Shown here: piece after piece, positions 2,911 to 39,278 of the stretch
How positions within the stretch are numbered: position 1 is the stretch's first letter
How the letters are laid out: the number at the start of each line of letters is the position of its first letter
Origin: a bacterium
GTDB lineage: Bacteria > Patescibacteriota > Minisyncoccia > CAYZDR01
DNA length: 61,656 nucleotides
Direction of reading: 5' to 3'
NCBI GenBank assembly: GCA_043806975.1
Contig: JAZDGL010000069.1
Span: forward strand, 1-61,656
The notes under the pieces: model-generated
Told to the model about the DNA's origin: nothing
What the model saw: the letters and a program-made list of their open reading frames with translations, nothing else
The model's database searches: none
Position numbers and translations under genes: made by a program

Positions 2911-4038
2911 ATGAATAAAAATAAAAAATTAAAAGTAATAGATTTATTTTCTGGCGTTGGCGGATTAAGTTATGGTTTTGCTTGCGATGATAATTTTGAA
3001 ATAGTAGCGGCGAATGAAATTTTAATGAATATGGCAAAAGCATATTCATTAAATCATCCAACGGTAAAAGTATATGCGGAAGATATAAAAAATTTTAATG
3101 CTGGAAAAGTTGAAAAAGATTTAAATATCAAATCAAGCGAGATTGATATTGTCGTTGGTGGACCGCCTTGCCAGGCATATTCAACTGTTGGGAAAAGGCT
3201 AAACAATGATCCGCGAGGAAAATTATTCCAAGAGTATTATAGAGTATTAAAAGAGTTTAACCCTAGATTATTTCTTTTTGAGAATGTAAAAGGTCTTTTG
3301 TCAATGCAAAACGGTGAATTATTGAAAACTATTATTTCTCTTTTTGAATCGCTTGGATATAAAGTGTGGCACAAGCTTTTGAATGCCGCTGATTATGGCG
3401 CGCCGCAAATGAGAGAAAGAGTTGTAATTATTGGTTCAAAACTAAAAACTGATTTTAAATATCCAGAACCAACGCATTATAATCCTGCGGATGCAGCAGG
3501 GTTGTTCGCTACGAAACTCAAGCCTTATTTAACGCTTGAAGAGGCAATAAGCGATTTGCCATTTATCAAATCAAATGAGGAAAGTTTTGAATATTCTTCC
3601 GAGCCTCAGAATGATTTTCAAAATTTTATGCGTAAAAATGCGCCAGCAAAATTGATGGATCATAACTCCCCAAAGAATAATGGAAATTTGGTAAGAATAA
3701 TGGAATTATTGCCAGATGGCGGGACGCCCGAGGATTTGCCTGAATATTTGCGTCCTATGTCGGGTTTTAAAAATACTTATTGCCGTTTGTGGTGGAAAAG
3801 ACCGGCGATGACGATTACAAGAAATTTAGGCACGCCTTCATCATCCCGTTGTATCCATCCAAAAGCGCCAAGACCGCTTACAACAAGAGAAGGCGCAAGA
3901 ATCCAATGTTTCCCTGATGATTATAAATTTTTTGGTTCTAGGGGGGATAGAAATTTACAAGTGGGGAATGCTGTGCCGACATTTTTGTCAAATGCAATTG
4001 CAAAAGCAATTTTAAAAAATTTTAGAGAAAATAGCTAA
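2911..4038 (+). CDS. dcm: DNA (cytosine-5)-methyltransferase
   Basis: Canonical C5-MTase motifs are present: DLFSGVGG (I), GGPPCQAYS (IV), ENV (VI), QMRERV (VIII), GNAVP (X). Confidence 0.92.
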   Translation: MNKNKKLKVIDLFSGVGGLSYGFACDDNFEIVAANEILMNMAKAYSLNHPTVKVYAEDIKNFNAGKVEKDLNIKSSEIDIVVGGPPCQAYSTVGKRLNNDPRGKLFQEYYRVLKEFNPRLFLFENVKGLLSMQNGELLKTIISLFESLGYKVWHKLLNAADYGAPQMRERVVIIGSKLKTDFKYPEPTHYNPADAAGLFATKLKPYLTLEEAISDLPFIKSNEESFEYSSEPQNDFQNFMRKNAPAKLMDHNSPKNNGNLVRIMELLPDGGTPEDLPEYLRPMSGFKNTYCRLWWKRPAMTITRNLGTPSSSRCIHPKAPRPLTTREGARIQCFPDDYKFFGSRGDRNLQVGNAVPTFLSNAIAKAILKNFRENS

Positions 4039-24465: not shown

Positions 24466-26436
24466 ATGAATAACATTACTTATTTTGCTAAAACAAATTT
24501 TAGAAATCAAGAGAAAACTTTTGGAATAAAGCCTGACGATCGCCGCCGCCATGTGTATTTGATTGGAAAGACTGGTATGGGAAAAACTGAATGTATGAAA
24601 AATATGGTGATTCAGGATATCCAAAACGGGCATGGTGTAGCAATTCTTGATCCGCATGGAGACGCGGCGGAGGATCTTTTAAATTTTGTTCCGCCTTCAA
24701 GAATAAATGATGTTGTTTATTTTAATCCTGCTGACGAAGAAAACCCAATCGCGTTTAATATCTTGGAATCTGTTGATGGAAGGGACAAAAAATATTTGAT
24801 TGCGTCGGGGCTAATGGGAGTTTTTAAAAAGCTTTGGCCTGATGTTTGGAGCGCCCGAATGGAATATTTACTTAATAACACGATTCTTGCTCTTTTAGAG
24901 TATCCTAGCAGCACAATGCTGGGGATAAATAGAATGTTTTCCGATAAAGAATTTAGGAAAAAAGTTGTGGATAGGGTGACTGATCCGCTGGTTAAGTCGT
25001 TTTGGGTGAATGAATTCGCGAAATATACCGATCGGCTTGCGACAGAGGCGACTTCGGCGGTGCAAAACAAGGTAGGACAATTTTTGTCTTCTGCGATTAT
25101 CCGCAACATTATTGGACAGCCAAAATCAACGATTAGTATGCGGGATATTATGAATAATCAGAAAATTTTGATAGTAAATCTTTCCAAGGGTAAAATCGGC
25201 GAAGACAATATGAAGCTTTTGGGGGGAATGATTGTGACAAAATTACAGCTGGCGGCGATGGAAAGGGTGAATATTCCCGAAGAAGACAGAAAAGATTTTT
25301 ATCTTTATGTTGATGAGTTGCAGAATTTTGTAAATGAATCTTTCGCGGGAATTCTCTCTGAGGCAAGAAAATATCGCCTTTCGCTTACTTTGGCACATCA
25401 GTATATTAAGCAGCTCCCAGAGGTTATTCGCGACGCTATATTTGGCAACGCGGGAACTTTAATAACTTTTCGCATAGGCGCGGAAGATGCGGAATTTTTG
25501 GAAAAAGAGTTTGAGCCTGCCGTGATGATGAATGATATTATCAATCTTCCGAAATATAATATTTATTTAAAATTGATGATTGATGGGATTACCAGCAATG
25601 CTTTTAGTGCCGTTTCGCTCCCCCCGATGAAACCGGCAGAGGCTAGCTCGGTTGATAAGGTGGTTAAGGTTTCAAGAGAGCGATATAGCAAGAAGAAAAT
25701 GGAAGTAGAAGAAAAAATTATTCGTTGGATAGGCGTGGATATAGGCGATAATAGTAAAGGAAATTTGGCGGGCAAAGAAAATGGGGGTTATTCAGGCAGC
25801 GGAGGAGGCGAAAATCCTCCCGAGATGTTTAAAGCAGAGTGCGCCCAGTGCGGAAAGCCGACTTTTGTTCCGTTTAAGCCCGATGAAAGGCGGCCTGTCT
25901 TTTGCGAAAAATGTTTGAAGAATTTAAGAAGCTCGGGCGCCACTTTTTCATACAAGAAAGCAGGAAATGGGCAGGAGCAAAATGGAGCGGTTCAAAATAA
26001 AGAAAATAGAGTTAGCGAGGCGCCGAATCTGCCTAAAAAAGAAAATTATTCGCAAAATAATAATAATCAAGAGAATAATAATTATCGCAAGCCCGGGTTA
26101 AACCAATATAACAATGATCTTTTAAGCGAGGCTCCCAAAAAAGAAGTTTCTATTAAAGATGCTTTACAAAAAGCTTTGGCAGGGGAAACGAGCAAACAAG
26201 TGGTTACAAAAAGTCGCCAAAAAGAGGTTGATGTGGCAGGAATAAGGGATTTAGTAAGCAATGTTTTGAATAAGCGAATGGGGAGCGGAGATGGCGGGGA
26301 AAATAAGAGCGATGAAAATGGCAAAGGTATTGCGGATGCGGGGGTAAATAATTTGTCAGGACAAAATTTAGAAAAACCTTCTTCCGCGCAAGCAGGGAAT
26401 GAGCTTAAACAAGGAGAAGAGGTAAGATTTTCTTAA
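24466..26436 (+). CDS. TraD/VirD4-like (type IV coupling protein family) P-loop ATPase with C-terminal CxxC-x17-CxxC zinc ribbon
   Basis: Walker A GKTGMGKT, Walker B FYLYVDELQNF, LTLAHQY. CAQCGKPTFVPFKPDERRPVFCEKC at about 25840-25914. Low-complexity N/Q/G-rich tail. Confidence 0.75.
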   Translation: MNNITYFAKTNFRNQEKTFGIKPDDRRRHVYLIGKTGMGKTECMKNMVIQDIQNGHGVAILDPHGDAAEDLLNFVPPSRINDVVYFNPADEENPIAFNILESVDGRDKKYLIASGLMGVFKKLWPDVWSARMEYLLNNTILALLEYPSSTMLGINRMFSDKEFRKKVVDRVTDPLVKSFWVNEFAKYTDRLATEATSAVQNKVGQFLSSAIIRNIIGQPKSTISMRDIMNNQKILIVNLSKGKIGEDNMKLLGGMIVTKLQLAAMERVNIPEEDRKDFYLYVDELQNFVNESFAGILSEARKYRLSLTLAHQYIKQLPEVIRDAIFGNAGTLITFRIGAEDAEFLEKEFEPAVMMNDIINLPKYNIYLKLMIDGITSNAFSAVSLPPMKPAEASSVDKVVKVSRERYSKKKMEVEEKIIRWIGVDIGDNSKGNLAGKENGGYSGSGGGENPPEMFKAECAQCGKPTFVPFKPDERRPVFCEKCLKNLRSSGATFSYKKAGNGQEQNGAVQNKENRVSEAPNLPKKENYSQNNNNQENNNYRKPGLNQYNNDLLSEAPKKEVSIKDALQKALAGETSKQVVTKSRQKEVDVAGIRDLVSNVLNKRMGSGDGGENKSDENGKGIADAGVNNLSGQNLEKPSSAQAGNELKQGEEVRFS

Positions 26437-27854: not shown

Positions 27855-29126
27855 ATGAGCCAAACAGTTATCTCGTTATTGAATAAAATAAAAATTGATC
27901 CATCGTGGTCTTTTTCCGATAAAACAAGGAAGGAAACGGCGTATATTACGCATGGGTATCATCGTTATCCTGCAAAATTTATTCCGCAAATAGTTTCTCG
28001 TTTGGCGGAAAAATATACACGAGCAGGCGATTTTATCGTTGATCCATTTGGTGGTTGCGGGACGACTCTTGTTGAATCAAGAGTTATGGGACGGCCGTCA
28101 ATTGCCGTTGATATTAACCCAGTCGCTGTTTTAATTACGAAAGCGAAAATTACGGCAATTGATCCTATAAAAATTGAAAAGGAATTTACAATTTTTCAAA
28201 AGAAATTGGAATCTTATAGCGAAAAAACAAAAGTAAAAGCTCCTGAGCACGAAAGAATTGACTATTGGTTTAAGCCAGAAGAAAAAAGAAAACTTGCTTT
28301 TATTTTTGCTGAGATTTCAAAAATAAAAGATCAAGATATTCAAGATTTCTTTTTCTGCGGGTTTTCAAACATTCTTAAAAATTGTTCAATATGGCTACAA
28401 AAAAGTAATAAACCAACAAGGGATTTTGAAAAAAAACCTTCGGAGCCGATTAAAACATTTTTAAAACAAATAAAAATGATGTTGCGAGGCAACACGCGAT
28501 TATTTGAATTGTTATCAGAAAAAGGTTATTCGAAGATTTCAAGTAAAGTAATTTGCACAGACGCAAGGACAATTCCCGCAAAGGATAACAGTGTTAGCTT
28601 GATTGTTACTTCTCCGCCTTATGTGACCTCTTACGAATACGCCGATCTGCACCAACTCACTGCTTTATGGTTAGAATATACTAAGGATTTGAGCGACTTT
28701 CGAAAACGATTTATTGGCACTTCGTATCACAATAAAAAAGATTTGACGCTTAATAGTGCGATTGCGGAAAATATCAGAAAAAAATTGTTAGAGAAAGATA
28801 AAAAAACCGCCGAGGAAGTTTCAACATACTTTAGCGAGATGAATCAGGTATTTGTTGAAATGAAAAGAATGCTAAAAAAAGGCGGAAAAACCTGTATTGT
28901 CATTGGCAATACGAGCTTAAAAGGCGTTGAAATACTTAATGCGGAGGTTTTTGTTGAGCAATTACAAAACTTGGGATTAAAAATCGCCGATATTATTAAA
29001 AGAGAAATTCCTTCAAAAAATTTGCCGTCTGTTCGAGATGAAAAGACGGGTAAATTTGCGAGCATAAATGATAAAAATAAAGTTTCTGTTTATCCAACAG
29101 AGTATATATTAATAATGGAAAAATAA
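27855..29126 (+). CDS. DNA methyltransferase, N4-cytosine or N6-adenine (SPPY type)
   Basis: Motif I DPFGGCGTT near the N-terminus and motif IV TSPPY about 190 aa later (alpha-like order). SPPY is commoner in m4C enzymes. Confidence 0.8.
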   Translation: MSQTVISLLNKIKIDPSWSFSDKTRKETAYITHGYHRYPAKFIPQIVSRLAEKYTRAGDFIVDPFGGCGTTLVESRVMGRPSIAVDINPVAVLITKAKITAIDPIKIEKEFTIFQKKLESYSEKTKVKAPEHERIDYWFKPEEKRKLAFIFAEISKIKDQDIQDFFFCGFSNILKNCSIWLQKSNKPTRDFEKKPSEPIKTFLKQIKMMLRGNTRLFELLSEKGYSKISSKVICTDARTIPAKDNSVSLIVTSPPYVTSYEYADLHQLTALWLEYTKDLSDFRKRFIGTSYHNKKDLTLNSAIAENIRKKLLEKDKKTAEEVSTYFSEMNQVFVEMKRMLKKGGKTCIVIGNTSLKGVEILNAEVFVEQLQNLGLKIADIIKREIPSKNLPSVRDEKTGKFASINDKNKVSVYPTEYILIMEK

Positions 29127-29130
29127 AACT

Positions 29131-29799
29131 ATGAGTATAAACGACCTTATCAAAATTTACGAAACAAAAAAGAAAAAATATGGTGTGCAAGCATATCGCC
29201 ACATTTCAAATGTTTTGAAAGAAGCCAAAGAATTACATAAAAAAGATTTTACAGGCAATGACCACGAGCAATCGTGGCGCGCTTTCAAAGGTAAAAACTT
29301 GGAAAAATTGATTGAATACATTATCACGGATGAAGTTAACGCTTTAAACTTGCGGGTAGTAAATGGAAATAGTCTTGAAAGAACGAACGGATCAAATCTT
29401 TCAAAAGAGTTAAGTTTGGTTAAAAGAAATCTAATTGTTGATTATGGCGAGTTTGGTTCGCATTTACCGGATGTCGATTTGATTATTTACGACCCAAAAA
29501 CTAGCAAAGTCGTTGCTGTTTTGTCAAGCAAGGTAACTTTGCGGGAAAGAATAGCCCAAACTGGTTATTGGAAAATTAAACTTGCCTCTGACGAAGCGAC
29601 AAAACATATCAAAGTTTATTTCGTAACGCCGGATGAAGACGGAACACTAACGATTAAAAAACCTACAAAAAAAGGCAGGGCAATCGTTGAAGTGGATACA
29701 GACGGCAGTTATGTTTTGAGTGAGACAGATATTGAGGAAAGCGACAAGGTAAAAATGTTTGATAAATTTATTGATGATCTTAAGAAATTGCTCAAATAA
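29131..29799 (+). CDS. type II restriction endonuclease, PD-(D/E)XK, possibly CCGG-family-like
   Basis: It sits between two MTase genes with gaps of 4-5 nt. PDVDLIIYD...VLSSKVTLRER gives a PD...SxK core followed by K-x3-R-E-R. Confidence 0.65.
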   Translation: MSINDLIKIYETKKKKYGVQAYRHISNVLKEAKELHKKDFTGNDHEQSWRAFKGKNLEKLIEYIITDEVNALNLRVVNGNSLERTNGSNLSKELSLVKRNLIVDYGEFGSHLPDVDLIIYDPKTSKVVAVLSSKVTLRERIAQTGYWKIKLASDEATKHIKVYFVTPDEDGTLTIKKPTKKGRAIVEVDTDGSYVLSETDIEESDKVKMFDKFIDDLKKLLK

Positions 29800-29804
29800 A
29801 TAAT

Positions 29805-30533
29805 ATGTCCAATAATTTAATAATTGAGTCAACAACTTTATGGGATTTTCCGAGACAAAATTATGGTGACAAGCCACACGGAAATAATAAATATAACGGT
29901 GTAACGCCGGCTTTTGTCATTTGGAATTTACTCCAAAGATATACCAAAGAGGGCGATTTAGTCGTTGATCCGATGTGCGGGAGCGGGACGACAATTGATG
30001 TTGCAAAAGAATTGAACAGGAAAGTAATCGGCTATGATCTGAACATTGTTAGACCCGATGTAATTAAAAACGATGCCCGACAAATTCCGCTTGCTGACAA
30101 TTCTGTTGATTTTGTTTTTATTGATTCGCCATATTCCGACAATATCAATTATTCTGACAATAAAGAGTGCATTGGTAAAATTTCTTGCGAAAAAATAGAA
30201 TTTTATGATGAATTAGAAAAAACCGCTACGGAAATTGCAAGAATTTTAAAACCTGGAAAAGCTATGGGTTGGGTTATTGCCGATCAATGGGTCAAAAAGA
30301 AATTTACAGCCGTTGGATTTTTGATGTGGCAAAGGTTAGAAAAACATTTTGAACCAATGGATATTGTTTGCTTAACAAGGCATAACCAAACATCAAACAC
30401 GGGGATTTGGCATAACAGAGCAAGGCAGTTTAATTTTTATTTGAGAGGTTTTAAATATTTGTTTATTATGAGAAAATCAGCGCCATTGCGAGAAAAGCAG
30501 GTGAGTAGTCGTGAACCCAGCCATTTACTTTAA
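29805..30533 (+). CDS. second DNA methyltransferase (amino-MTase, motif I before motif IV)
   Basis: VVDPMCGSGTTIDVA (motif I) and FVFIDSPY (motif IV-like). Confidence 0.7.
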   Translation: MSNNLIIESTTLWDFPRQNYGDKPHGNNKYNGVTPAFVIWNLLQRYTKEGDLVVDPMCGSGTTIDVAKELNRKVIGYDLNIVRPDVIKNDARQIPLADNSVDFVFIDSPYSDNINYSDNKECIGKISCEKIEFYDELEKTATEIARILKPGKAMGWVIADQWVKKKFTAVGFLMWQRLEKHFEPMDIVCLTRHNQTSNTGIWHNRARQFNFYLRGFKYLFIMRKSAPLREKQVSSREPSHLL

Positions 30534-33596: not shown

Positions 33597-35076
33597 ATGA
33601 GTGCCCAAGAAATACTTAAAATGGCGCGATGGAGGGATTCTGCAAATGAGAGCTTTAAAAAGGGTGTTCATTTTTTATTTAATCACCTTATCAAGCCTAT
33701 TTCGGAAAATGAAGATTTAAAAAGAGTAGAGTTTATTTTGAATGTTATTTTGCTTGGATCGTTGGCGATCTCTTTAATGGCTTTTTTTGATACTGTAATT
33801 TATTGTTTTATCCAACGCGGAGATTATCAAGGGGCTCCCCCAATTGTTCTTTTTGCGGTGGTTTTTGTTTTTTTGAGTTTGTTGGTTTTTTCTAGGTTGG
33901 GATTTTTCAAGTTTTCCTCTTACCTTTTAGTAATTGTTTATTTTTTAGCAGCTTTTTACACTATTTTTAATTGGGGCATAGATATCCCGCAAGGTTTGCT
34001 GATTTATGTCGTAATTATTGTCATTTCAGGGATTTTGATCGGCGCAAAATTTTCCTTTTGGGTTTCTTTTTTTGTTTCTGTGGTGATGCTATCTGTGTGT
34101 TATTTGCAAAAAAACGATATTGTTAAACCGGCGTTGTTTTGGAGAAGTCAAAAAACAAGCTGCGGAGATGTCATTGTTTATATTGTCACTTTCTTTATTA
34201 TTTTTATACTTTCATGGCTTTCAAACCGCGAGATTGAAAAATCTTTAAAGAGGGCGCGCGAATCAGAAAAGGCGTTGAAATTGGAAAAAGATAATCTTGA
34301 AAAAAGAGTTGAAGAGAAAACTCGCGAGTTAAAAAACGCTCAGCTTGAAAAAATGGCGCAGCTTTATCAGTTTGCAGAGTTTGGACGGATTGCGGGGGGG
34401 ATTTTTACATGATATTATCAATCCTTTGACGGCAGTTTCTTTAGATTTGGAGCAGATTCATAATGAAACTTGTAAAAAAAATGGAAATTATGGAAACTTT
34501 AAAGAGCTTTTAGACGATGCGATTTTTGGGACAAAAAGGATGGAGGGGTTTGTCCAGTCGGCTCGCCGTCAGCTTCAAAAAAATGACGAAAGAATTGTTT
34601 TTTCAACTTTGGATGAAATTGAGAAGGTAGTTCAGGTTATCGCGCGCAAGGCAAGAATTTTTGGAGTTGATATAGTCGTGAACCAGCCTGATTATATTGA
34701 GTTTTTTGGCGATCCGATCAAGTTTAATCATTTTTTGACTCATTTAATTTCCAATGCGGTTGATTCTTATGAAAATATGGAAAATTGCGGGAACAAAAAA
34801 GAAATTTTAATTTCAATTTTTGATTTTGATAGACAGATAAAAATGGAGGTTCAGGATTGGGGATGCGGGATTAAAAAAGAAATAATCGGGAAAATTTTTA
34901 ATCCATTTTTTACTACAAAGAATACAGAGAAAGGCACGGGGATCGGGCTTGCAATATCAAAAGACATTATTGAAAATGATTTTAAGGGAACGATTGCGGT
35001 TGAAAGTGAATTTGGTATGGGGGCGAAATTTTTAATAACAATTCCAAAAGAAGATTTAAGTGAGGAAAAAAAATAA
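33597..35076 (+). pseudogene. sensor histidine kinase interrupted by a +1 frameshift in a G7 tract (ORFs 33597..34412 and 34345..35076)
   Basis: The N-terminal ORF has multiple TM helices plus a coiled coil. The second ORF carries the H-box HDIINPLTAV, N-box HLISNAVDS, G1 VQDWGCGI and G2 GTGIGLAI. With G6 instead of G7 the frame reads FGRIAGGFLHDIINPL. Confidence 0.75.
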
Positions 35077-37093
35077 AGCAGGCAAAAATAAAATTATTTT
35101 CGGCTCAGATTTGGCAGATGGGATAGAAAAAGCGGTTAGCGAAGCAGCAAGTTTTTTAGAGAAAAACCAGCTGGACGATGGGAGTTTTTTAAGTTTTTCT
35201 TCGGAAGATCTTGGTGATTTTTCAAAGGTTAAAGAGTATCATTCAATTTTTTCTTCAAGTTTAATTTTATCAAGTTTGGCGGCTGTAAAAACGCGTGGAT
35301 TTGCGAAAAAAAAGATTATCGGGCGGGTAAAAAAGGGAATTGCTAATTTTTTACTTTCTCAAAAAAGTGATTGCTGGTCTTTTAATTATTGGAAAAGGGA
35401 TTCGGAAGAATCAGGGGGGATGCCTTATCCCGATGATTTAGATGATACATTTTGCGCTTTATCGGCGCTTTTTTTGTGCAAATCTAGTATTTTTGGCGGA
35501 GATGTTTTAGCTAAAATTGTCGCGCTTCTTGCTTCGACGGAGAAAAAAGAAGGCGGTCCGTATCAGACATGGTTAGTTTGTGGTAACGCTGATCCTGTGT
35601 GGAAAGATGTTGATTTGGCTGTAAATAGCAATGTTGCTTATTTTCTTTCTTTGCAGGAAGTAGAATTGCCTAATTTGGAAAATTTTGTTGAAAAAGCGAT
35701 AATGGTAGATAAGTTAATTTCGCCGTATTATCCAAATTTTTATCCGCTGGTATATTTTATTTCTAGATTTTATAAGGGGAGGCTAAAAAATAGGCTTATT
35801 GATTTTATACTTTTAAATCGGAAAAATGGAATTTGGGAAAATTCTCTTTATACTTCTTTGGCTATTTCGGCGCTTTTGAATTTAGGATATTCTTTTGGCA
35901 AACTTAAAGAGGCGGTTGAATATTTATTAAGCTGCCAGCAAAACGGGGGATGGGGAGCTTGCGCTTTTTGCCTTGATCCTGCTATTGGCGGGAAGGTTTT
36001 TTATTGCGGTTCAGATGCTTTGACAACGGCTTTTTGTGTGGAAGCGCTGGAAAAATATAAAGAAAAAATAAATTTAGAAAAAAAACAGGCAGGGGCGTTT
36101 GTAGGCGAAATTTTAAATCGAAAACTTGAAGAGCAGCTGAAAATTCAAAGTTTAATTATTGAAAAATATCGGGAAAAATTTTCTTATTTAGGCGAAGATT
36201 TAAACAAGCAATCTGAAATAGCGCTTAAAAAAATTTTGAAAATTGATGAACGGGATCGTCAAATAACTTTGTTGCCCTATCTTTTTAAAAAGTCTTTAAA
36301 GCGCGGCAATGAGATTTCTAGCGATTTGGCAATTCAGCTTGGTTTCGCTAATTTGCTAGGGTGGACTGCTTATACAATTTATGATGATTTTCTTGATTTA
36401 GAGGGCGATTCTAAAATGCTTTCTGTGGCGAATGTTGCGTTAAGAGAGCTTGCTTTGATTTTTGGCAGTTTAGATATAAGCGGGGTTAAAGATTTTTTTA
36501 CGAAAATTATGGATAAAATAGATTCTGCGAACGGACAGGAAGTTTCTAAATGCAAACTGGAAAATTTTGTTTTTTCTGAAAGGGAAAATGTATTTGGCGA
36601 TTATTCAATTTTGGCTGAAAAATCACTGGGTCATTGTTTGGGGTGTGTTGCTATTCTTCTAAAATTAGGGTTCAAAGAAAATTCTTCTGAGATAAAAAAA
36701 CTTATGGATTTTTTTAGCCATTTTTTGATTGCTCGCCAGCTTCATGATGATGCGCATGATTGGGAAGATGATTTAAGGCGAGGTTATGTGAATTCGGCAA
36801 GTGCTTTAACTTTAAATGAAGCTGGTAAGGCGCGAGGTAAAAAAGAAAATCAGAAAAAAATTGATTTAAAGAAAGATTTAAAACATTTGCAAGAAATTTT
36901 TTGGGAAAATACGATTATTCAAATTTGTAAATTGGTTTTAGCGCACCTAAAAGAAGCGGAGATTTGTTTAAGCGAGCTTACCTGTCTTGAAGATATTTCA
37001 ATATTTAAGGATTTTTTGGCAAATTTGAAAAATTCTGCTAAAAAAACATTGCGCCAGCAGAAGGATGTAAAAAATTTTTTGAATAATTTTTAA
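35060..37093 (+). CDS. two-domain terpene-synthase-like protein (class II cyclase-like N-domain plus squalene/phytoene-synthase-like C-domain)
   Basis: DDLDDT (DxDDT) at 35432-35449. QW-like repeats (FLEKNQLDDGSF, AVEYLLSCQQNGGWG). DDFLD at 36383-36397. HDDAHDWEDDLRRGY at 36743-36787. The GTG start overlaps the HK stop by 17 nt. Confidence 0.6.
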   Translation: MRKKNKAGKNKIIFGSDLADGIEKAVSEAASFLEKNQLDDGSFLSFSSEDLGDFSKVKEYHSIFSSSLILSSLAAVKTRGFAKKKIIGRVKKGIANFLLSQKSDCWSFNYWKRDSEESGGMPYPDDLDDTFCALSALFLCKSSIFGGDVLAKIVALLASTEKKEGGPYQTWLVCGNADPVWKDVDLAVNSNVAYFLSLQEVELPNLENFVEKAIMVDKLISPYYPNFYPLVYFISRFYKGRLKNRLIDFILLNRKNGIWENSLYTSLAISALLNLGYSFGKLKEAVEYLLSCQQNGGWGACAFCLDPAIGGKVFYCGSDALTTAFCVEALEKYKEKINLEKKQAGAFVGEILNRKLEEQLKIQSLIIEKYREKFSYLGEDLNKQSEIALKKILKIDERDRQITLLPYLFKKSLKRGNEISSDLAIQLGFANLLGWTAYTIYDDFLDLEGDSKMLSVANVALRELALIFGSLDISGVKDFFTKIMDKIDSANGQEVSKCKLENFVFSERENVFGDYSILAEKSLGHCLGCVAILLKLGFKENSSEIKKLMDFFSHFLIARQLHDDAHDWEDDLRRGYVNSASALTLNEAGKARGKKENQKKIDLKKDLKHLQEIFWENTIIQICKLVLAHLKEAEICLSELTCLEDISIFKDFLANLKNSAKKTLRQQKDVKNFLNNF

Positions 37094-37205: not shown

Positions 37206-39278
37206 ATGATAACGGCGAAAGAGCTTAGACAAAAATATATTGATTTTTTTAAGGAAAAAGGGCATAAAGCAATCCCCTCGGCTTCTTTAATCCCAGAAAA
37301 TGATCCAACTGTGCTTTTTACAACAGCTGGAATGCACCCGCTGGTTCCTTATTTATTGGGACAGCCGCATCCAGAGGGCAAGCGAATTGTTGACGCGCAA
37401 AAATGCGTTCGCACAGGGGACATTGAAGATGTTGGGGATAACCGTCATCTTACTTTTTTTGAAATGCTGGGGAACTGGTCGTTTGGGGATTATTTTAAAG
37501 AAGATGCGATCCAGTGGAGTTGGGAATTTTTAACTGGAAAAAAATGGCTGGGGCTTGACCCAAAAAGACTGTATATCACTGTCTTTAAAGGCGATGGTGA
37601 AATTCCCCGCGATGATGAGGTAGTTAAAATTTGGCAGGATCAGTTTAAAAAGTTTGGAATTTTTGCTGGCGTTGCTAATGATAATGCAGTTTGGGGGAGT
37701 GAGGATGTGAGGATTTTTGTTTTGCCAAAAAAGGATAATTTTTGGGAAATGGGAGGCGAGAATGGTCCGTGCGGACCTTGCACGGAAATTTTTTATGATG
37801 TTTTTCCTGAAAAGGGCTGGGAGAACAAAAATTTCGATGAGCTTACCTGCGAGTTTAGGTTTATAGAAATTTGGAATAATGTTTTTATGTTGTATAATAA
37901 AGCTGGCGCAGGAACATATGAGCCGCTTTTGCAAAAAAATGTTGATACGGGAATGGGTGTTGAGAGGACGGTTGCAATTTTAAATGGAGCAAAAAATGTT
38001 TTTGAAACGGAATTATTCGCGCCGATTATTAAGAGAATTAAGGGGATGGAAAATCCCCCTCAATCCCCCTTTGCAAAGGGGGAAAACGAAGGAGATTCTT
38101 TCCTAACCTCTTCTTTATCAAGGGAGAGAGAGGAAGAAAATCTCCCTGCCTCTTTTGCAAAGGGGGAAACGGAACACCCCCTCCAACTCCCCCTCCGGGA
38201 GGGGGAGAGAAAGAAGGAATGCCTCCTTCCTGAAGAGGAGAGAAGGAAGGGAGAAGTGGAAAAGTCTGAGCGAATTATCGCTGATCATATTAAAGCGGCA
38301 GTAATGATTTTGGCGGACGATAAAAAAATAGTTCCATCTAATGTTGAACGGGGGTATGTTTTGCGACGGCTGATCCGCCGCGCTGTTAGATATGGGAAAA
38401 TTTTGGGGATTGAAGGAAATTTTATGGCGCAAATCGCGGAGGCGGTTGTGGATATGTATAAAGAAACATATCTAGAAGTTGGAAAAAATAAGGACTTTAT
38501 TTTTAGAGAGCTGGAAAAAGAGGAGGATAAATTTGGGAAAACTTTGGGTAGGGGGCTTATAATGCTTGAAAAAACTGTGAAAGAATTAGATAAAAATACA
38601 ATGGCCGCGTTTAAAAAACATGGAGAAAAAGTTTATGAACCGAAAATTTCGGGAAAAATTGTGTTTGATTTGTATCAAACTTATGGTTTTCCACCTGAAT
38701 TAACGGAGGAGGAGCTGGCTGAATATACTTGGACATATGATAAAGAAGAATTTCAACAAGAGCTTAAAAAACATCAAGATCTTTCTCGCACCGCTTCTGC
38801 TGGAATGTTTAAATCAGGGCTTGCGGATAACTCAGAAGCTACAACGAAACTTCACACAGCTACTCATCTTCTTCAAGCGGCTTTGAGAGAAATTTTAGGA
38901 GTAAAAGTTGAGCAAAGAGGAAGTAATATCACCCCTGAAAGATTGCGTTTTGATTTTTCTCATTTTGAAAAAATGTCTTCTTCACAAATTAAGCAAGCTG
39001 AAAATTGGGTTAATGATAAAATTCAAAAAAATCTTGCTGTTATTTGTGAGGAAATGTCTCCAGAAAAAGCAAAAGAAAGCGGCGCGCTGGGGCTTTTTGA
39101 CGCAAAATACGGCAATCTAGTGACAGTTTTTACAATAAAAGATGGAGAAAAAATAATTTCTCGTGAAATTTGCAAAGGTCCGCATATAGAGGAAACGGGG
39201 GTTCTTGGAAAATTTAAAATTGTGAAAGAAGAAGCATCTTCGCAAGGAGTAAGAAGAATTAAAGCAGTTTTGGAATAA
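37206..39278 (+). CDS. alaS: alanine--tRNA ligase (short form) carrying an in-frame repeat insertion
   Basis: ELRQKYIDFFKEKGHKAIPSASLIP, FTTAGMHPLVPY, VDTGMGVERT, RGYVLRRLIRRA, editing-domain HxxxH (HTATHLLQ). About 73 extra codons lie between IIKRIKG and ERIIADH. Confidence 0.92.
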   Translation: MITAKELRQKYIDFFKEKGHKAIPSASLIPENDPTVLFTTAGMHPLVPYLLGQPHPEGKRIVDAQKCVRTGDIEDVGDNRHLTFFEMLGNWSFGDYFKEDAIQWSWEFLTGKKWLGLDPKRLYITVFKGDGEIPRDDEVVKIWQDQFKKFGIFAGVANDNAVWGSEDVRIFVLPKKDNFWEMGGENGPCGPCTEIFYDVFPEKGWENKNFDELTCEFRFIEIWNNVFMLYNKAGAGTYEPLLQKNVDTGMGVERTVAILNGAKNVFETELFAPIIKRIKGMENPPQSPFAKGENEGDSFLTSSLSREREEENLPASFAKGETEHPLQLPLREGERKKECLLPEEERRKGEVEKSERIIADHIKAAVMILADDKKIVPSNVERGYVLRRLIRRAVRYGKILGIEGNFMAQIAEAVVDMYKETYLEVGKNKDFIFRELEKEEDKFGKTLGRGLIMLEKTVKELDKNTMAAFKKHGEKVYEPKISGKIVFDLYQTYGFPPELTEEELAEYTWTYDKEEFQQELKKHQDLSRTASAGMFKSGLADNSEATTKLHTATHLLQAALREILGVKVEQRGSNITPERLRFDFSHFEKMSSSQIKQAENWVNDKIQKNLAVICEEMSPEKAKESGALGLFDAKYGNLVTVFTIKDGEKIISREICKGPHIEETGVLGKFKIVKEEASSQGVRRIKAVLE
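38046..38264 (+). repeat. GC-rich hairpin array inserted in frame inside alaS
   Basis: CCCCCTTTGCAAAGGGGG (38065-38082), GGAGATTCTTTCC...GGAAGAAAATCTCC, CTCCCCCTCCGGGAGGGGGAG (38187-38207), CCTTCCT...AGGAAGG. 219 nt = 73 codons with no stop. Confidence 0.8.

Follow-up and report, generated by a model that had tools for sequence, protein, structure and literature searches.

An open reading frame (ORF) at 35060..37093 (+ strand) of a 61,656-nt stretch of Patescibacteria DNA (contig JAZDGL010000069.1, positions 1 to 61,656 of the forward strand; "the window" hereafter) encodes a protein that carries a beta-only class II terpene cyclase domain in its N-terminal half. The C-terminal half is best read as a class I isoprenoid-synthase fold, descended from the trans-isoprenyl diphosphate synthases (trans-IPPS) and deprived of the residues that bind isopentenyl diphosphate (IPP). 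The gene lies directly behind a histidine kinase locus and belongs to a family that is specific to the Patescibacteria (candidate phyla radiation, CPR), in which both halves are conserved over their full length. On balance, we lean towards regarding the protein as a bifunctional beta-alpha terpene synthase whose gene forms part of a two-component operon.

The protein is 677 amino acids (aa) long when read from a GTG start codon. It corresponds to NCBI entry MFH1175680.1, carries the database name [quoted passage not shown], and has neither a signal peptide nor a transmembrane (TM) segment. The original prediction, made from the sequence, had placed class II cyclase motifs and a class I-type unit with two Asp-rich motifs in a single polypeptide; profile searches, Foldseek comparisons and residue conservation bear this out. 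The peptides that it quoted (YPDDLDDTF, KEAVEYLLSCQQNGGW, YDDFLD and HDDAHDWEDDLRRGY) were all recovered where it had put them, and their conservation goes far beyond chance. The profile and Foldseek checks found cyclase homology in the N-terminal toroid and an isoprenoid-synthase fold in the C-terminal half, not a non-catalytic toroid joined to an unrelated domain. Conservation is given below for 212 aligned family members, except where the 258 full-length members are named.

A beta-only class II terpene cyclase domain in the N-terminal half

A profile built from 32 family members and run against the PDB matched the class II domain of the bacterial drimenol synthase AsDMS (9mhs/9m7d) with an E-value of 1.5e-11 over profile positions 25-310. 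The AlphaFold2 (AF2) model of the window protein (predicted local distance difference test score, pLDDT, 85.9; predicted template-modelling score, pTM, 0.72) shows an alpha/alpha-toroid of about 12 helices at aa ~16-344 (35105..36091, +), for which Foldseek returned AsDMS (5.8e-10), the myxobacterial structures 8pak and 8paj, MstE (6sbg) and SsDMS. Structures of squalene-hopene cyclase (SHC) aligned only partially with this domain (template-modelling score, TM-score, ~0.23). The model contains a single toroid and no gamma domain, which explains why the N-terminal domain, as the original prediction remarked, is only about half the size of an SHC; its matches are to AsDMS, MstE, the small myxobacterial cyclases and AstC-like_C. 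Some homologues gave faint matches to AstC-like_C (PF28380), and some matched SQHop_cyclase_C of Pfam over the QW-like region. The models for full SHC and oxidosqualene cyclase families were missed by a wide distance (TIGR01787, 18.2 bits against a cut-off of 322.7; TIGR01507, 11.4 against 431). When the window protein was searched as a single sequence, Pfam gave sub-threshold matches only, to TED_complement, FraC and similar families, and phmmer against the PDB gave an SHC as its best match, with an E-value of 2.4. Toroids of the complement-TED, prenyltransferase-beta and lanthionine-cyclase-like kinds were considered as candidates and rejected, since class II cyclases, on which the catalytic Asp lines up, gave the best and the only significant matches.

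The general-acid motif of class II cyclases is represented by YPDDLDDTF (aa 123-131; 35426..35452, +). In the profile alignment its D126 and D128 fall on D331 and D333 of AsDMS, and Y223-Y224 (35726..35731, +) fall on Y426 and Y427. D331, D333 and Y427 are catalytic in AsDMS, where Y427 hydrogen-bonds the general acid (PMC12365925). The DxDDT motif of the original prediction thus holds: D128, on the catalytic D333, is present in 212 of the 212 members, as is P124, and D126 in 211, T130 in 207, Y224 in 209 and Y223 in 208; the pattern P[DNE][DN].D.[TS] occurs in 254 of the 258 full-length members. The QW-like repeats that had been noted are likewise real. One, EAASFLEKNQLDDGSF (aa 28-43; 35141..35188, +), has near-invariant Q37, G41 and F43; the other, KEAVEYLLSCQQNGGW (aa 283-298; 35906..35953, +), aligns to QW segments of SHC, with W298 kept in 185 members.

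Between these elements lies a loop, E161-x3-GGPY168-x2-W171 ... W181-x-D183-x-D185-x3-N189-x-N191 (35540..35632, +), which is conserved in all 212 members at most positions, has a pLDDT below 50 at aa 161-181 and is partly an insertion relative to AsDMS. It is a candidate for a mobile lid and/or a Mg or head-group site, taking the place of the Arg-rich site of AsDMS. Since beta-only cyclases need an active-site cap, supplied by a mobile loop in MstE and by the HAD (haloacid dehalogenase) domain in the DMS enzymes (PMC12414744), a capping role for loop 161-191 and/or the alpha domain seems probable, and the invariant loop of the family, with its low pLDDT, finds a plausible counterpart in the mobile loop of MstE (PMC12414744).

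The C-terminal half and the class I isoprenoid-synthase fold

The C-terminal half (aa ~345-677; 36092..37090, +) is all-helical, and the case for a class I isoprenoid-synthase fold comes from AF2, Foldseek, hhalign and, in one homologue, Pfam. Modelled alone, the domain reached a pLDDT of 93.8 and a pTM of 0.91. Its top 50 PDB matches in Foldseek were all trans-IPPS (E-values down to 6.8e-6, TM-scores up to 0.73, 11-18% identity), including hexa-, octa- and decaprenyl diphosphate synthases, farnesyl and geranylgeranyl diphosphate synthases (FPPS and GGPPS) and the prenyltransferase domain of the fungal enzyme PvCPS (8v0f); no squalene/phytoene synthase (SQS/PSY), class IB or class I cyclase structure was among these 50. 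A class IB large-terpene synthase of the YtpB/BalTS kind was rejected as a candidate, with no DUF2600 match and no class IB structure in the top 50. No HAD domain was found in the window protein, the second domain being all-helical and IPPS-like.

Two Asp-rich motifs mark the domain. The first, GWxAYTIYDDFLDxEGD (aa 434-450, including YDDFLD; 36359..36409, +), occupies the C-terminal end of a long helix, the position that the first Asp-rich motif (FARM) has in IPPS. The second, ARQLxDDAHDWExDLxxG (aa 558-578, including HDDAHDWEDDLRRGY; 36731..36793, +), supplies a triad, D563/D567/D571, spaced i, i+4, i+8 and aligned with the second Asp-rich motif (SARM) of IPPS. G434, W435, D442, D446, Q560, D563, D567 and D571 are present in 212 of the 212 aligned members, and N491, E494, S522, H525 and H566 are highly conserved. 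The pattern Q..D[DE]..D...D was found in 258 of the 258 full-length members; D442 and D446 are kept also in the variants among the other 46, the motif being Y441-D442-[DN]-x-x-D446. Conserved basic positions in the alpha domain are confined to R462, R499 and K/R521, the last of which (212 of 212) opens a [KR]-S-x-G-H motif (36620..36634, +) with S522 in 210 members and H525 in 207.

Comparison with the genuine IPPS encoded beside some family members (see below) placed these motifs in register. In local or permissive modes of hhalign the C-domain profile was co-linear with the neighbouring IPPS over 307 columns, FARM on FARM and SARM on SARM, with ARQLNDDAHDW of the family on AFQIxDDxLG of the IPPS; the similarity is weak (E-value 0.003, probability ~11%), and the global mode yielded a meaningless alignment of 62 columns. 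In the same low-confidence alignment the "RRG" that follows FARM and the "GK" that follows SARM in IPPS fall in deletions, and the [KR]-S-x-G-H motif may correspond to the "KT" motif of IPPS. The family profile found nothing for the C-terminal half among PDB sequences except a spurious p14 match. Neither polyprenyl_synt (PF00348) nor SQS_PSY (PF00494) matched the window protein or the ~41 members scanned. One homologue, P0102, just passed the Pfam cut-offs of Terpene_synth_C (PF03936; 26.6 against 26.3 bits) and Terpene_syn_C_2 (PF19086; 24.2 against 23.7 bits) over the second-motif region. The squalene/phytoene-synthase label that the original prediction had attached to this half is not sustained: SQS_PSY was not matched, the top 50 folds are trans-IPPS, and the second motif aligns with the IPPS SARM, AFQxxDDxxD.

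A family specific to the Patescibacteria

A word-index search with the window protein gave 929 matches; the best 120 of them were all ~640-670 aa long, covered ~97% of the query at 42-49% identity and came from sources named Parcubacteria, Microgenomates, Levybacteria, Moranbacteria and similar. Clustered at 50% identity, an exhaustive search of representatives gave 2025, 1540 and 924 clusters at E-values up to 1e-3, 1e-10 and 1e-30, respectively. Scanning one genome per GTDB species with two strict peptide patterns confirmed 232 species as carriers, in groups that include Saccharibacteria, Microgenomates, Parcubacteria, Daviesbacteria, Shapirobacteria, Roizmanbacteria, Colwellbacteria, Doudnabacteria and CPR2. 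In the databases the homologues are named "hypothetical" or "terpene cyclase/mutase family protein".

A few carrier bins in the species scan bear obviously wrong taxon labels. Among the bins that carry the module of kinase and beta-alpha gene described below, titles such as "uncultured Gammaproteobacteria", Vitreimonas, Sulfotelmatobacter and Methylomirabilota are common (L014, L016, L020, L024, L025, L040, L047 and others); bins with titles from outside the Patescibacteria are probably mislabelled or contaminated.

Linkage to a two-component system

In the window, a frameshift breaks the upstream histidine kinase gene (33597..35076, +) into the ORFs 33597..34412 and 34345..35076. It falls in a run of seven G residues (34394..34400, +) that could be an assembly error, the mark of a pseudogene or a phase-variable site. 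Removal of one G from the run restores a single kinase of 492 aa with an intact H-box, FLHDIINPL; the HATPase_c domain is recognised by Pfam with an E-value of 2e-19. Across 76 orthologues the kinase has about six TM helices in its first ~215 aa, with short loops between them, and a conserved coiled coil, the H-box and HATPase_c, an arrangement that makes it a kinase of the intramembrane-sensing type.

Synteny was examined at 80 species-representative loci, 73 of which include at least 1.3 kb of upstream sequence; proteins matching the window kinase with an E-value below 1e-40 were scored as orthologues. A kinase orthologue adjoins the beta-alpha gene in 68 of the 73 loci. At the other five, the orthologue lies ~750 nt upstream (two), a kinase is encoded on the opposite strand (two) or there is none (one). 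At least 51 loci also encode an OmpR-type regulator, which lies just ahead of the kinase. Six loci obtained by exact protein look-up gave the same picture, with the beta-alpha gene directly after a same-strand HATPase_c kinase, usually an OmpR-type regulator further upstream and otherwise unrelated neighbourhoods; two further loci agree on the module.

The original prediction had inferred translational coupling to the kinase. Adjacency is amply confirmed by the loci just described; coupling is another matter. The GTG of the beta-alpha ORF overlaps the TAA stop (35074-35076) of the upstream ORF by 17 nt, and most homologues begin at a position corresponding to an alternative TTG (35111..35113, +), which would put 34 nt between the kinase stop and the start of the beta-alpha gene; residues 1-14 of the window protein have a pLDDT below 50 in the AF2 model and are predicted to be disordered. 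The true start codon is thus ambiguous, so that the 17-nt overlap is a fact about ORFs and no proof of coupling. In the family at large, a median distance of 53 nt separates the kinase stop from the conserved Gln (Q37), and since ~57 nt of coding sequence precede this Gln, overlapping or abutting junctions are the rule. The corresponding distance in the window, 91 nt, is compatible with either start codon.

An IPPS gene accompanies the module in 17 of the 80 loci, either between regulator and kinase or directly downstream of the beta-alpha gene. These IPPS are of two types, one closest to the GGPPS of Thermus and Pyrococcus (1wmw, 5e-49) and the other to Corynebacterium GGPPS and Mycobacterium tuberculosis FPPS (3lk5, 8f8f). 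Clustering of ORFs over the 80 loci revealed no recurrent neighbour beyond the beta-alpha protein, the kinase, the regulator and the IPPS, the further clusters being antisense ORF artefacts. At one locus (L002/L003), which has an IPPS between regulator and kinase, a further isoprenoid-related gene, Caroten_synth (PF04240), is found at 3080-3919 (-), some 4 kb away from the module, and is confined to this locus.

The expectation, voiced in the original prediction, that organisms of this type lack isoprenoid pathways is not borne out. Many CPR bacteria carry mevalonate pathway and IPPS genes (PMC6107057), the module has GGPPS-like neighbours at the 17 loci just mentioned, and the window itself encodes MraY, FtsW and MurG, which imply a need for a polyprenyl carrier.

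Relation to known enzymes

AsDMS (9mhs/9m7d-f), which with the fungal AstC belongs to the HAD-TCbeta drimenol/drimenyl synthases, shares the beta-only class II domain and is the best match in both sequence and structure. Its cyclase, too, is fused to a second domain, there an N-terminal HAD phosphatase that removes the diphosphate, here a C-terminal IPPS-like alpha domain. The AsDMS motif is DxDTT whereas that of the family is DxDD(T), and identity is about 20%; the family further differs in lacking the Arg-rich site, in possessing the extra invariant loop at aa 161-181, in its restriction to Patescibacteria and in its operonic association with a two-component system. MstE (6sbg) and the myxobacterial proteins 8pak/8paj (~345 aa) share the beta-only architecture and the fold; they are stand-alone proteins with 13-17% identity to the family, and MstE uses DxD and a substrate with a benzoate head.

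For the C-terminal half the comparison is with trans-IPPS (FPPS, GGPPS and the hexa- to decaprenyl diphosphate synthases; PF00348), which have the same fold (TM-scores of 0.6-0.73), both Asp-rich motifs at the ends of equivalent helices and the signature Q-x-x-D-D-x-x-D. Unlike them, the family has no PF00348 match, its RRG, GK and GKxxR elements are missing or deleted, and it has invariant or nearly invariant residues (W435, Y438, H525 and H566) that are no features of IPPS. The fungal copalyl diphosphate synthases PvCPS and PfCPS (8v0f, 6v0k) have the same domain order, an N-terminal class II cyclase followed by an alpha domain of IPPS fold. PvCPS, however, combines a beta-gamma cyclase with a canonical GGPPS that has its full set of IPP-binding residues, whereas the family has no gamma domain, no RRG and no GK.

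The alpha-beta-gamma diterpene synthases of plants, mosses and fungi (abietadiene synthase and the copalyl diphosphate/kaurene synthases, CPS/KS) carry out DxDD-dependent protonation and cyclisation and then ionise the resulting bicyclic diphosphate by way of DDxxD/Mg2+, all within a single chain, with the beta domain preceding the alpha domain. Their class II site lies at the beta-gamma interface, and their alpha domain is of the terpene-synthase type with NSE/DTE. At the sequence level the family's match to them is limited to the borderline Terpene_synth_C score of a single homologue (see above).

The domains themselves belong to known superfamilies. Three features appear to be new: a beta-alpha pairing in which both sites are intact and a gamma domain is absent, an alpha domain of IPPS type that has shed its IPP site, and the sharing of an operon by a terpene-synthase-like gene and a kinase. 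Literature searches found no description of the family, nor of a link between terpene synthases and two-component systems in CPR bacteria. To our knowledge, the near-obligate position behind an intramembrane-sensing kinase is unprecedented for a terpene synthase.

Proposed function and alternative explanations

From the domain homology, fold, residue conservation and synteny described above we infer a mode of catalysis, a substrate, a product, an order of reactions and a functional link with the kinase. D128 (in the motif D126-L-D128-D129-T130), held in place by Y224, would donate a proton to the terminal double bond of an all-trans prenyl chain. Within the aromatic-lined cavity of the alpha/alpha-toroid the chain would next take on a bi- or polycyclic skeleton, the cavity being capped by the flexible loop at aa 161-191 and/or by the alpha domain. 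The alpha domain would bind a single prenyl diphosphate through Mg2+ held by D442/D446 and D563/D567/D571. As the basic residues for IPP binding are lost, it would not elongate the chain; instead it would remove or ionise the diphosphate in class I fashion, and a cyclic terpene or terpenol would be released, probably as a membrane-resident terpenoid. The likely substrate would be a C15-C20 diphosphate made by the GGPPS-like synthase often encoded in the same operon. Such a mechanism would resemble the cyclase-phosphatase logic of AsDMS and that of the class II/class I diterpene synthases. With the operon order of OmpR-type regulator, six-TM intramembrane-sensing kinase and beta-alpha enzyme last, terpenoid synthesis would be tied to, and possibly sensed by, the two-component system.

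Several observations weigh against this proposal. The family is known from sequence and models, and the window protein, like most members, reaches no Pfam or NCBIfam cut-off. In AsDMS the diphosphate group of farnesyl diphosphate is bound by Y373, R378, R380, R425, Y426 and R513 (PMC12365925). Of these residues only Y426 is kept (as Y223); R378, R380, R425 and R513 are replaced by W181, D183, P222 and A308, none of which is basic. With its Arg site lost, the beta domain may refuse a free diphosphate unless Mg2+ bridges the gap, or it may act after the alpha domain, so that the order of reactions could be reversed. As regards the alpha domain, Foldseek favours chain-elongating enzymes over cyclases, the sequence similarity to IPPS is weak (see above), and the second motif, DDxxDxxxD, is no canonical NSE/DTE, (N,D)Dxx(S,T)xxxE. 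The mevalonate pathway is reportedly missing in many Parcubacteria (PMC6107057). Finally, the copy in the window could be decaying: conserved sites of its alpha domain carry residues seldom found there (W493Q, R499K, N562H and H576Y, where W493 is the rule in 203 and R499 in 198 of 212 members), its kinase gene is frameshifted, and no IPPS homologue and, in contrast to most homologous loci, no response regulator was found in the 61.6-kb window. The substitutions and the broken kinase may indicate relaxed constraint in the lineage of the window.

The exclusive match of the C-terminal domain to trans-IPPS among its top 50 folds, PvCPS (8v0f) included, raises the question of whether the protein is instead a prenyltransferase-cyclase of the PvCPS kind, in which the C-terminal domain would elongate IPP and dimethylallyl diphosphate (DMAPP) to farnesyl or geranylgeranyl diphosphate (FPP or GGPP) and the beta domain would deliver a bicyclic prenyl diphosphate as final product. 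The FARM- and SARM-like motifs in register, Q560 at its IPPS position and the order of cyclase and alpha domain, the same as in PvCPS (PMC12393454), are all in keeping with such an enzyme. However, RRG and GK are deleted, no basic cluster of the GKxxR type is present among just three conserved basic positions, polyprenyl_synt is matched by no member scanned, the beta domain has no Arg-rich diphosphate site, and at the 17 of 80 loci where a bona fide IPPS is encoded in the same operon a second elongation enzyme would be redundant. We therefore hold this explanation to be unlikely. The altered head-group site of the beta domain admits another one, namely that the alpha domain ionises a prenyl diphosphate, cyclised or not, and transfers the carbocation to a non-isoprenoid acceptor such as a lipid head group, an aromatic compound or a protein. 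The acidic or neutral character of that site (W181, D183, D185, N189, N191) resembles recognition of the MstE type, MstE is among the top structural matches of the N-terminal domain, and H525, H566 and C498, invariant or nearly so in the alpha domain, have no counterpart role in IPPS. Yet no acceptor-pathway gene recurs at the 80 loci and the acceptor pocket is hypothetical, and we rate prenyl transfer as distinctly unlikely. The same low rating applies to its corollary, a meroterpenoid-type membrane molecule whose tail the beta domain would cyclise either ahead of the transfer or once it is complete, much as MstE acts on a substrate whose head is no diphosphate.

The near-universal order of regulator, kinase and third gene, with overlapping junctions, would also suit a non-catalytic accessory protein or sensor that binds an isoprenoid, for example the polyprenyl phosphate of cell-wall synthesis, and modulates the adjacent kinase in the manner of the auxiliaries encoded by third genes of two-component systems. 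Having no signal peptide or TM segment, the protein could contact the cytoplasmic part of the kinase, and a single member reaches the cut-offs of enzyme families. What makes such a role decidedly improbable is the invariance, over 212-258 sequences, of the general acid, its Tyr partner and five metal-binding Asp residues, which would be unexpected in a ligand-binding module. Lowest in our estimation, and scarcely credible, is the scheme built on the original prediction, an SQS/PSY-type head-to-head synthase fused to a cyclase of its C30 or C40 product as a miniature hopanoid-type pathway. The conserved D567-x3-D571-x3-G575 is superficially like DxxEDxxxGR, the ~121 aa between the Asp-rich motifs are compatible with SQS/PSY, and the QW-like motifs resemble those of SHC; but, besides the lack of SQS_PSY matches in ~41 members and of SQS/PSY structures among the top 50 folds, the IPPS SARM, together with "DLxxGKxT", is the better partner in alignment for the second motif, which has a Q at -3, and the conserved basic residues are too few for two FPP molecules. 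Moreover, the nearest cyclase relatives use C15-C20 substrates, and SHC is reported to be absent from CPR (PMC7306690).

Returning to the bifunctional beta-alpha synthase as the favoured explanation, a more far-reaching version can be envisaged, which we put forward tentatively as possible, if doubtful. A self-contained terpenoid circuit, ancestral to the Patescibacteria, would consist of the regulator, the six-TM kinase, the beta-alpha synthase and, in some cases, a GGPPS; within it the enzyme would make a cyclic terpenoid lipid and the kinase would sense this lipid or its effect on the membrane. The lipid could possibly be a surrogate for hopanoids or sterols, serving membrane homeostasis in bacteria without fatty-acid synthesis of their own, or else a diffusible terpenoid that acts as an autoinducer or as a signal in the interaction with the host. 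On this view the enzyme would also be the first example from bacteria of a beta-alpha terpene synthase whose class II and class I sites are both active and which has no gamma domain, an architecture that would bear on how multi-domain terpene synthases were assembled.

The Patescibacteria are regarded as biosynthetically minimal. A widespread, conserved enzyme with class II and class I machinery intact would imply that a cyclic terpenoid has been overlooked in CPR bacteria, and its adjacency to a kinase points to membrane homeostasis or signalling in these epibiotic organisms. In architecture, the pairing of a catalytic beta domain with an IPPS-derived alpha domain would be intermediate to three kinds of enzyme: monodomain cyclases, HAD-TCbeta enzymes and alpha-beta-gamma synthases.

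Other features of the window

Downstream of the beta-alpha gene, the gene for alanyl-tRNA synthetase (37206-39278) contains an in-frame low-complexity insert at 37922-38167 (...SPFAKGENEGDS...ASFAKGETEHPLQLPLREGERKKE...). In the DNA of the insert, two near-perfect palindromes of 18-19 nt (CCCCCTTTGCAAAGGGGG) lie 84 nt apart and are accompanied by a third, partial copy; the insert looks like palindromic repeats similar to repetitive extragenic palindromes or miniature inverted-repeat transposable elements (REP/MITE) inserted in the coding region. Several restriction-modification genes occur at 2911-4038 and at 27855-30533; they encode a methylase of the C5 cytosine type and one of the N6/N4 type, the latter with a BsaWI-like endonuclease behind it, and include one more methylase-like ORF. 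At 24466-26436 a 656-aa protein with ATPase domains of the TrwB/HerA type and a treble-clef zinc finger, reminiscent of type IV coupling proteins, is encoded beside a radical SAM gene. Nearly all ORFs of at least 120 aa in the window (1-61656) run along the + strand, and each 2-kb bin shows a positive GC skew, a picture that points to a single replichore for the entire contig, with a strong gene-strand bias.

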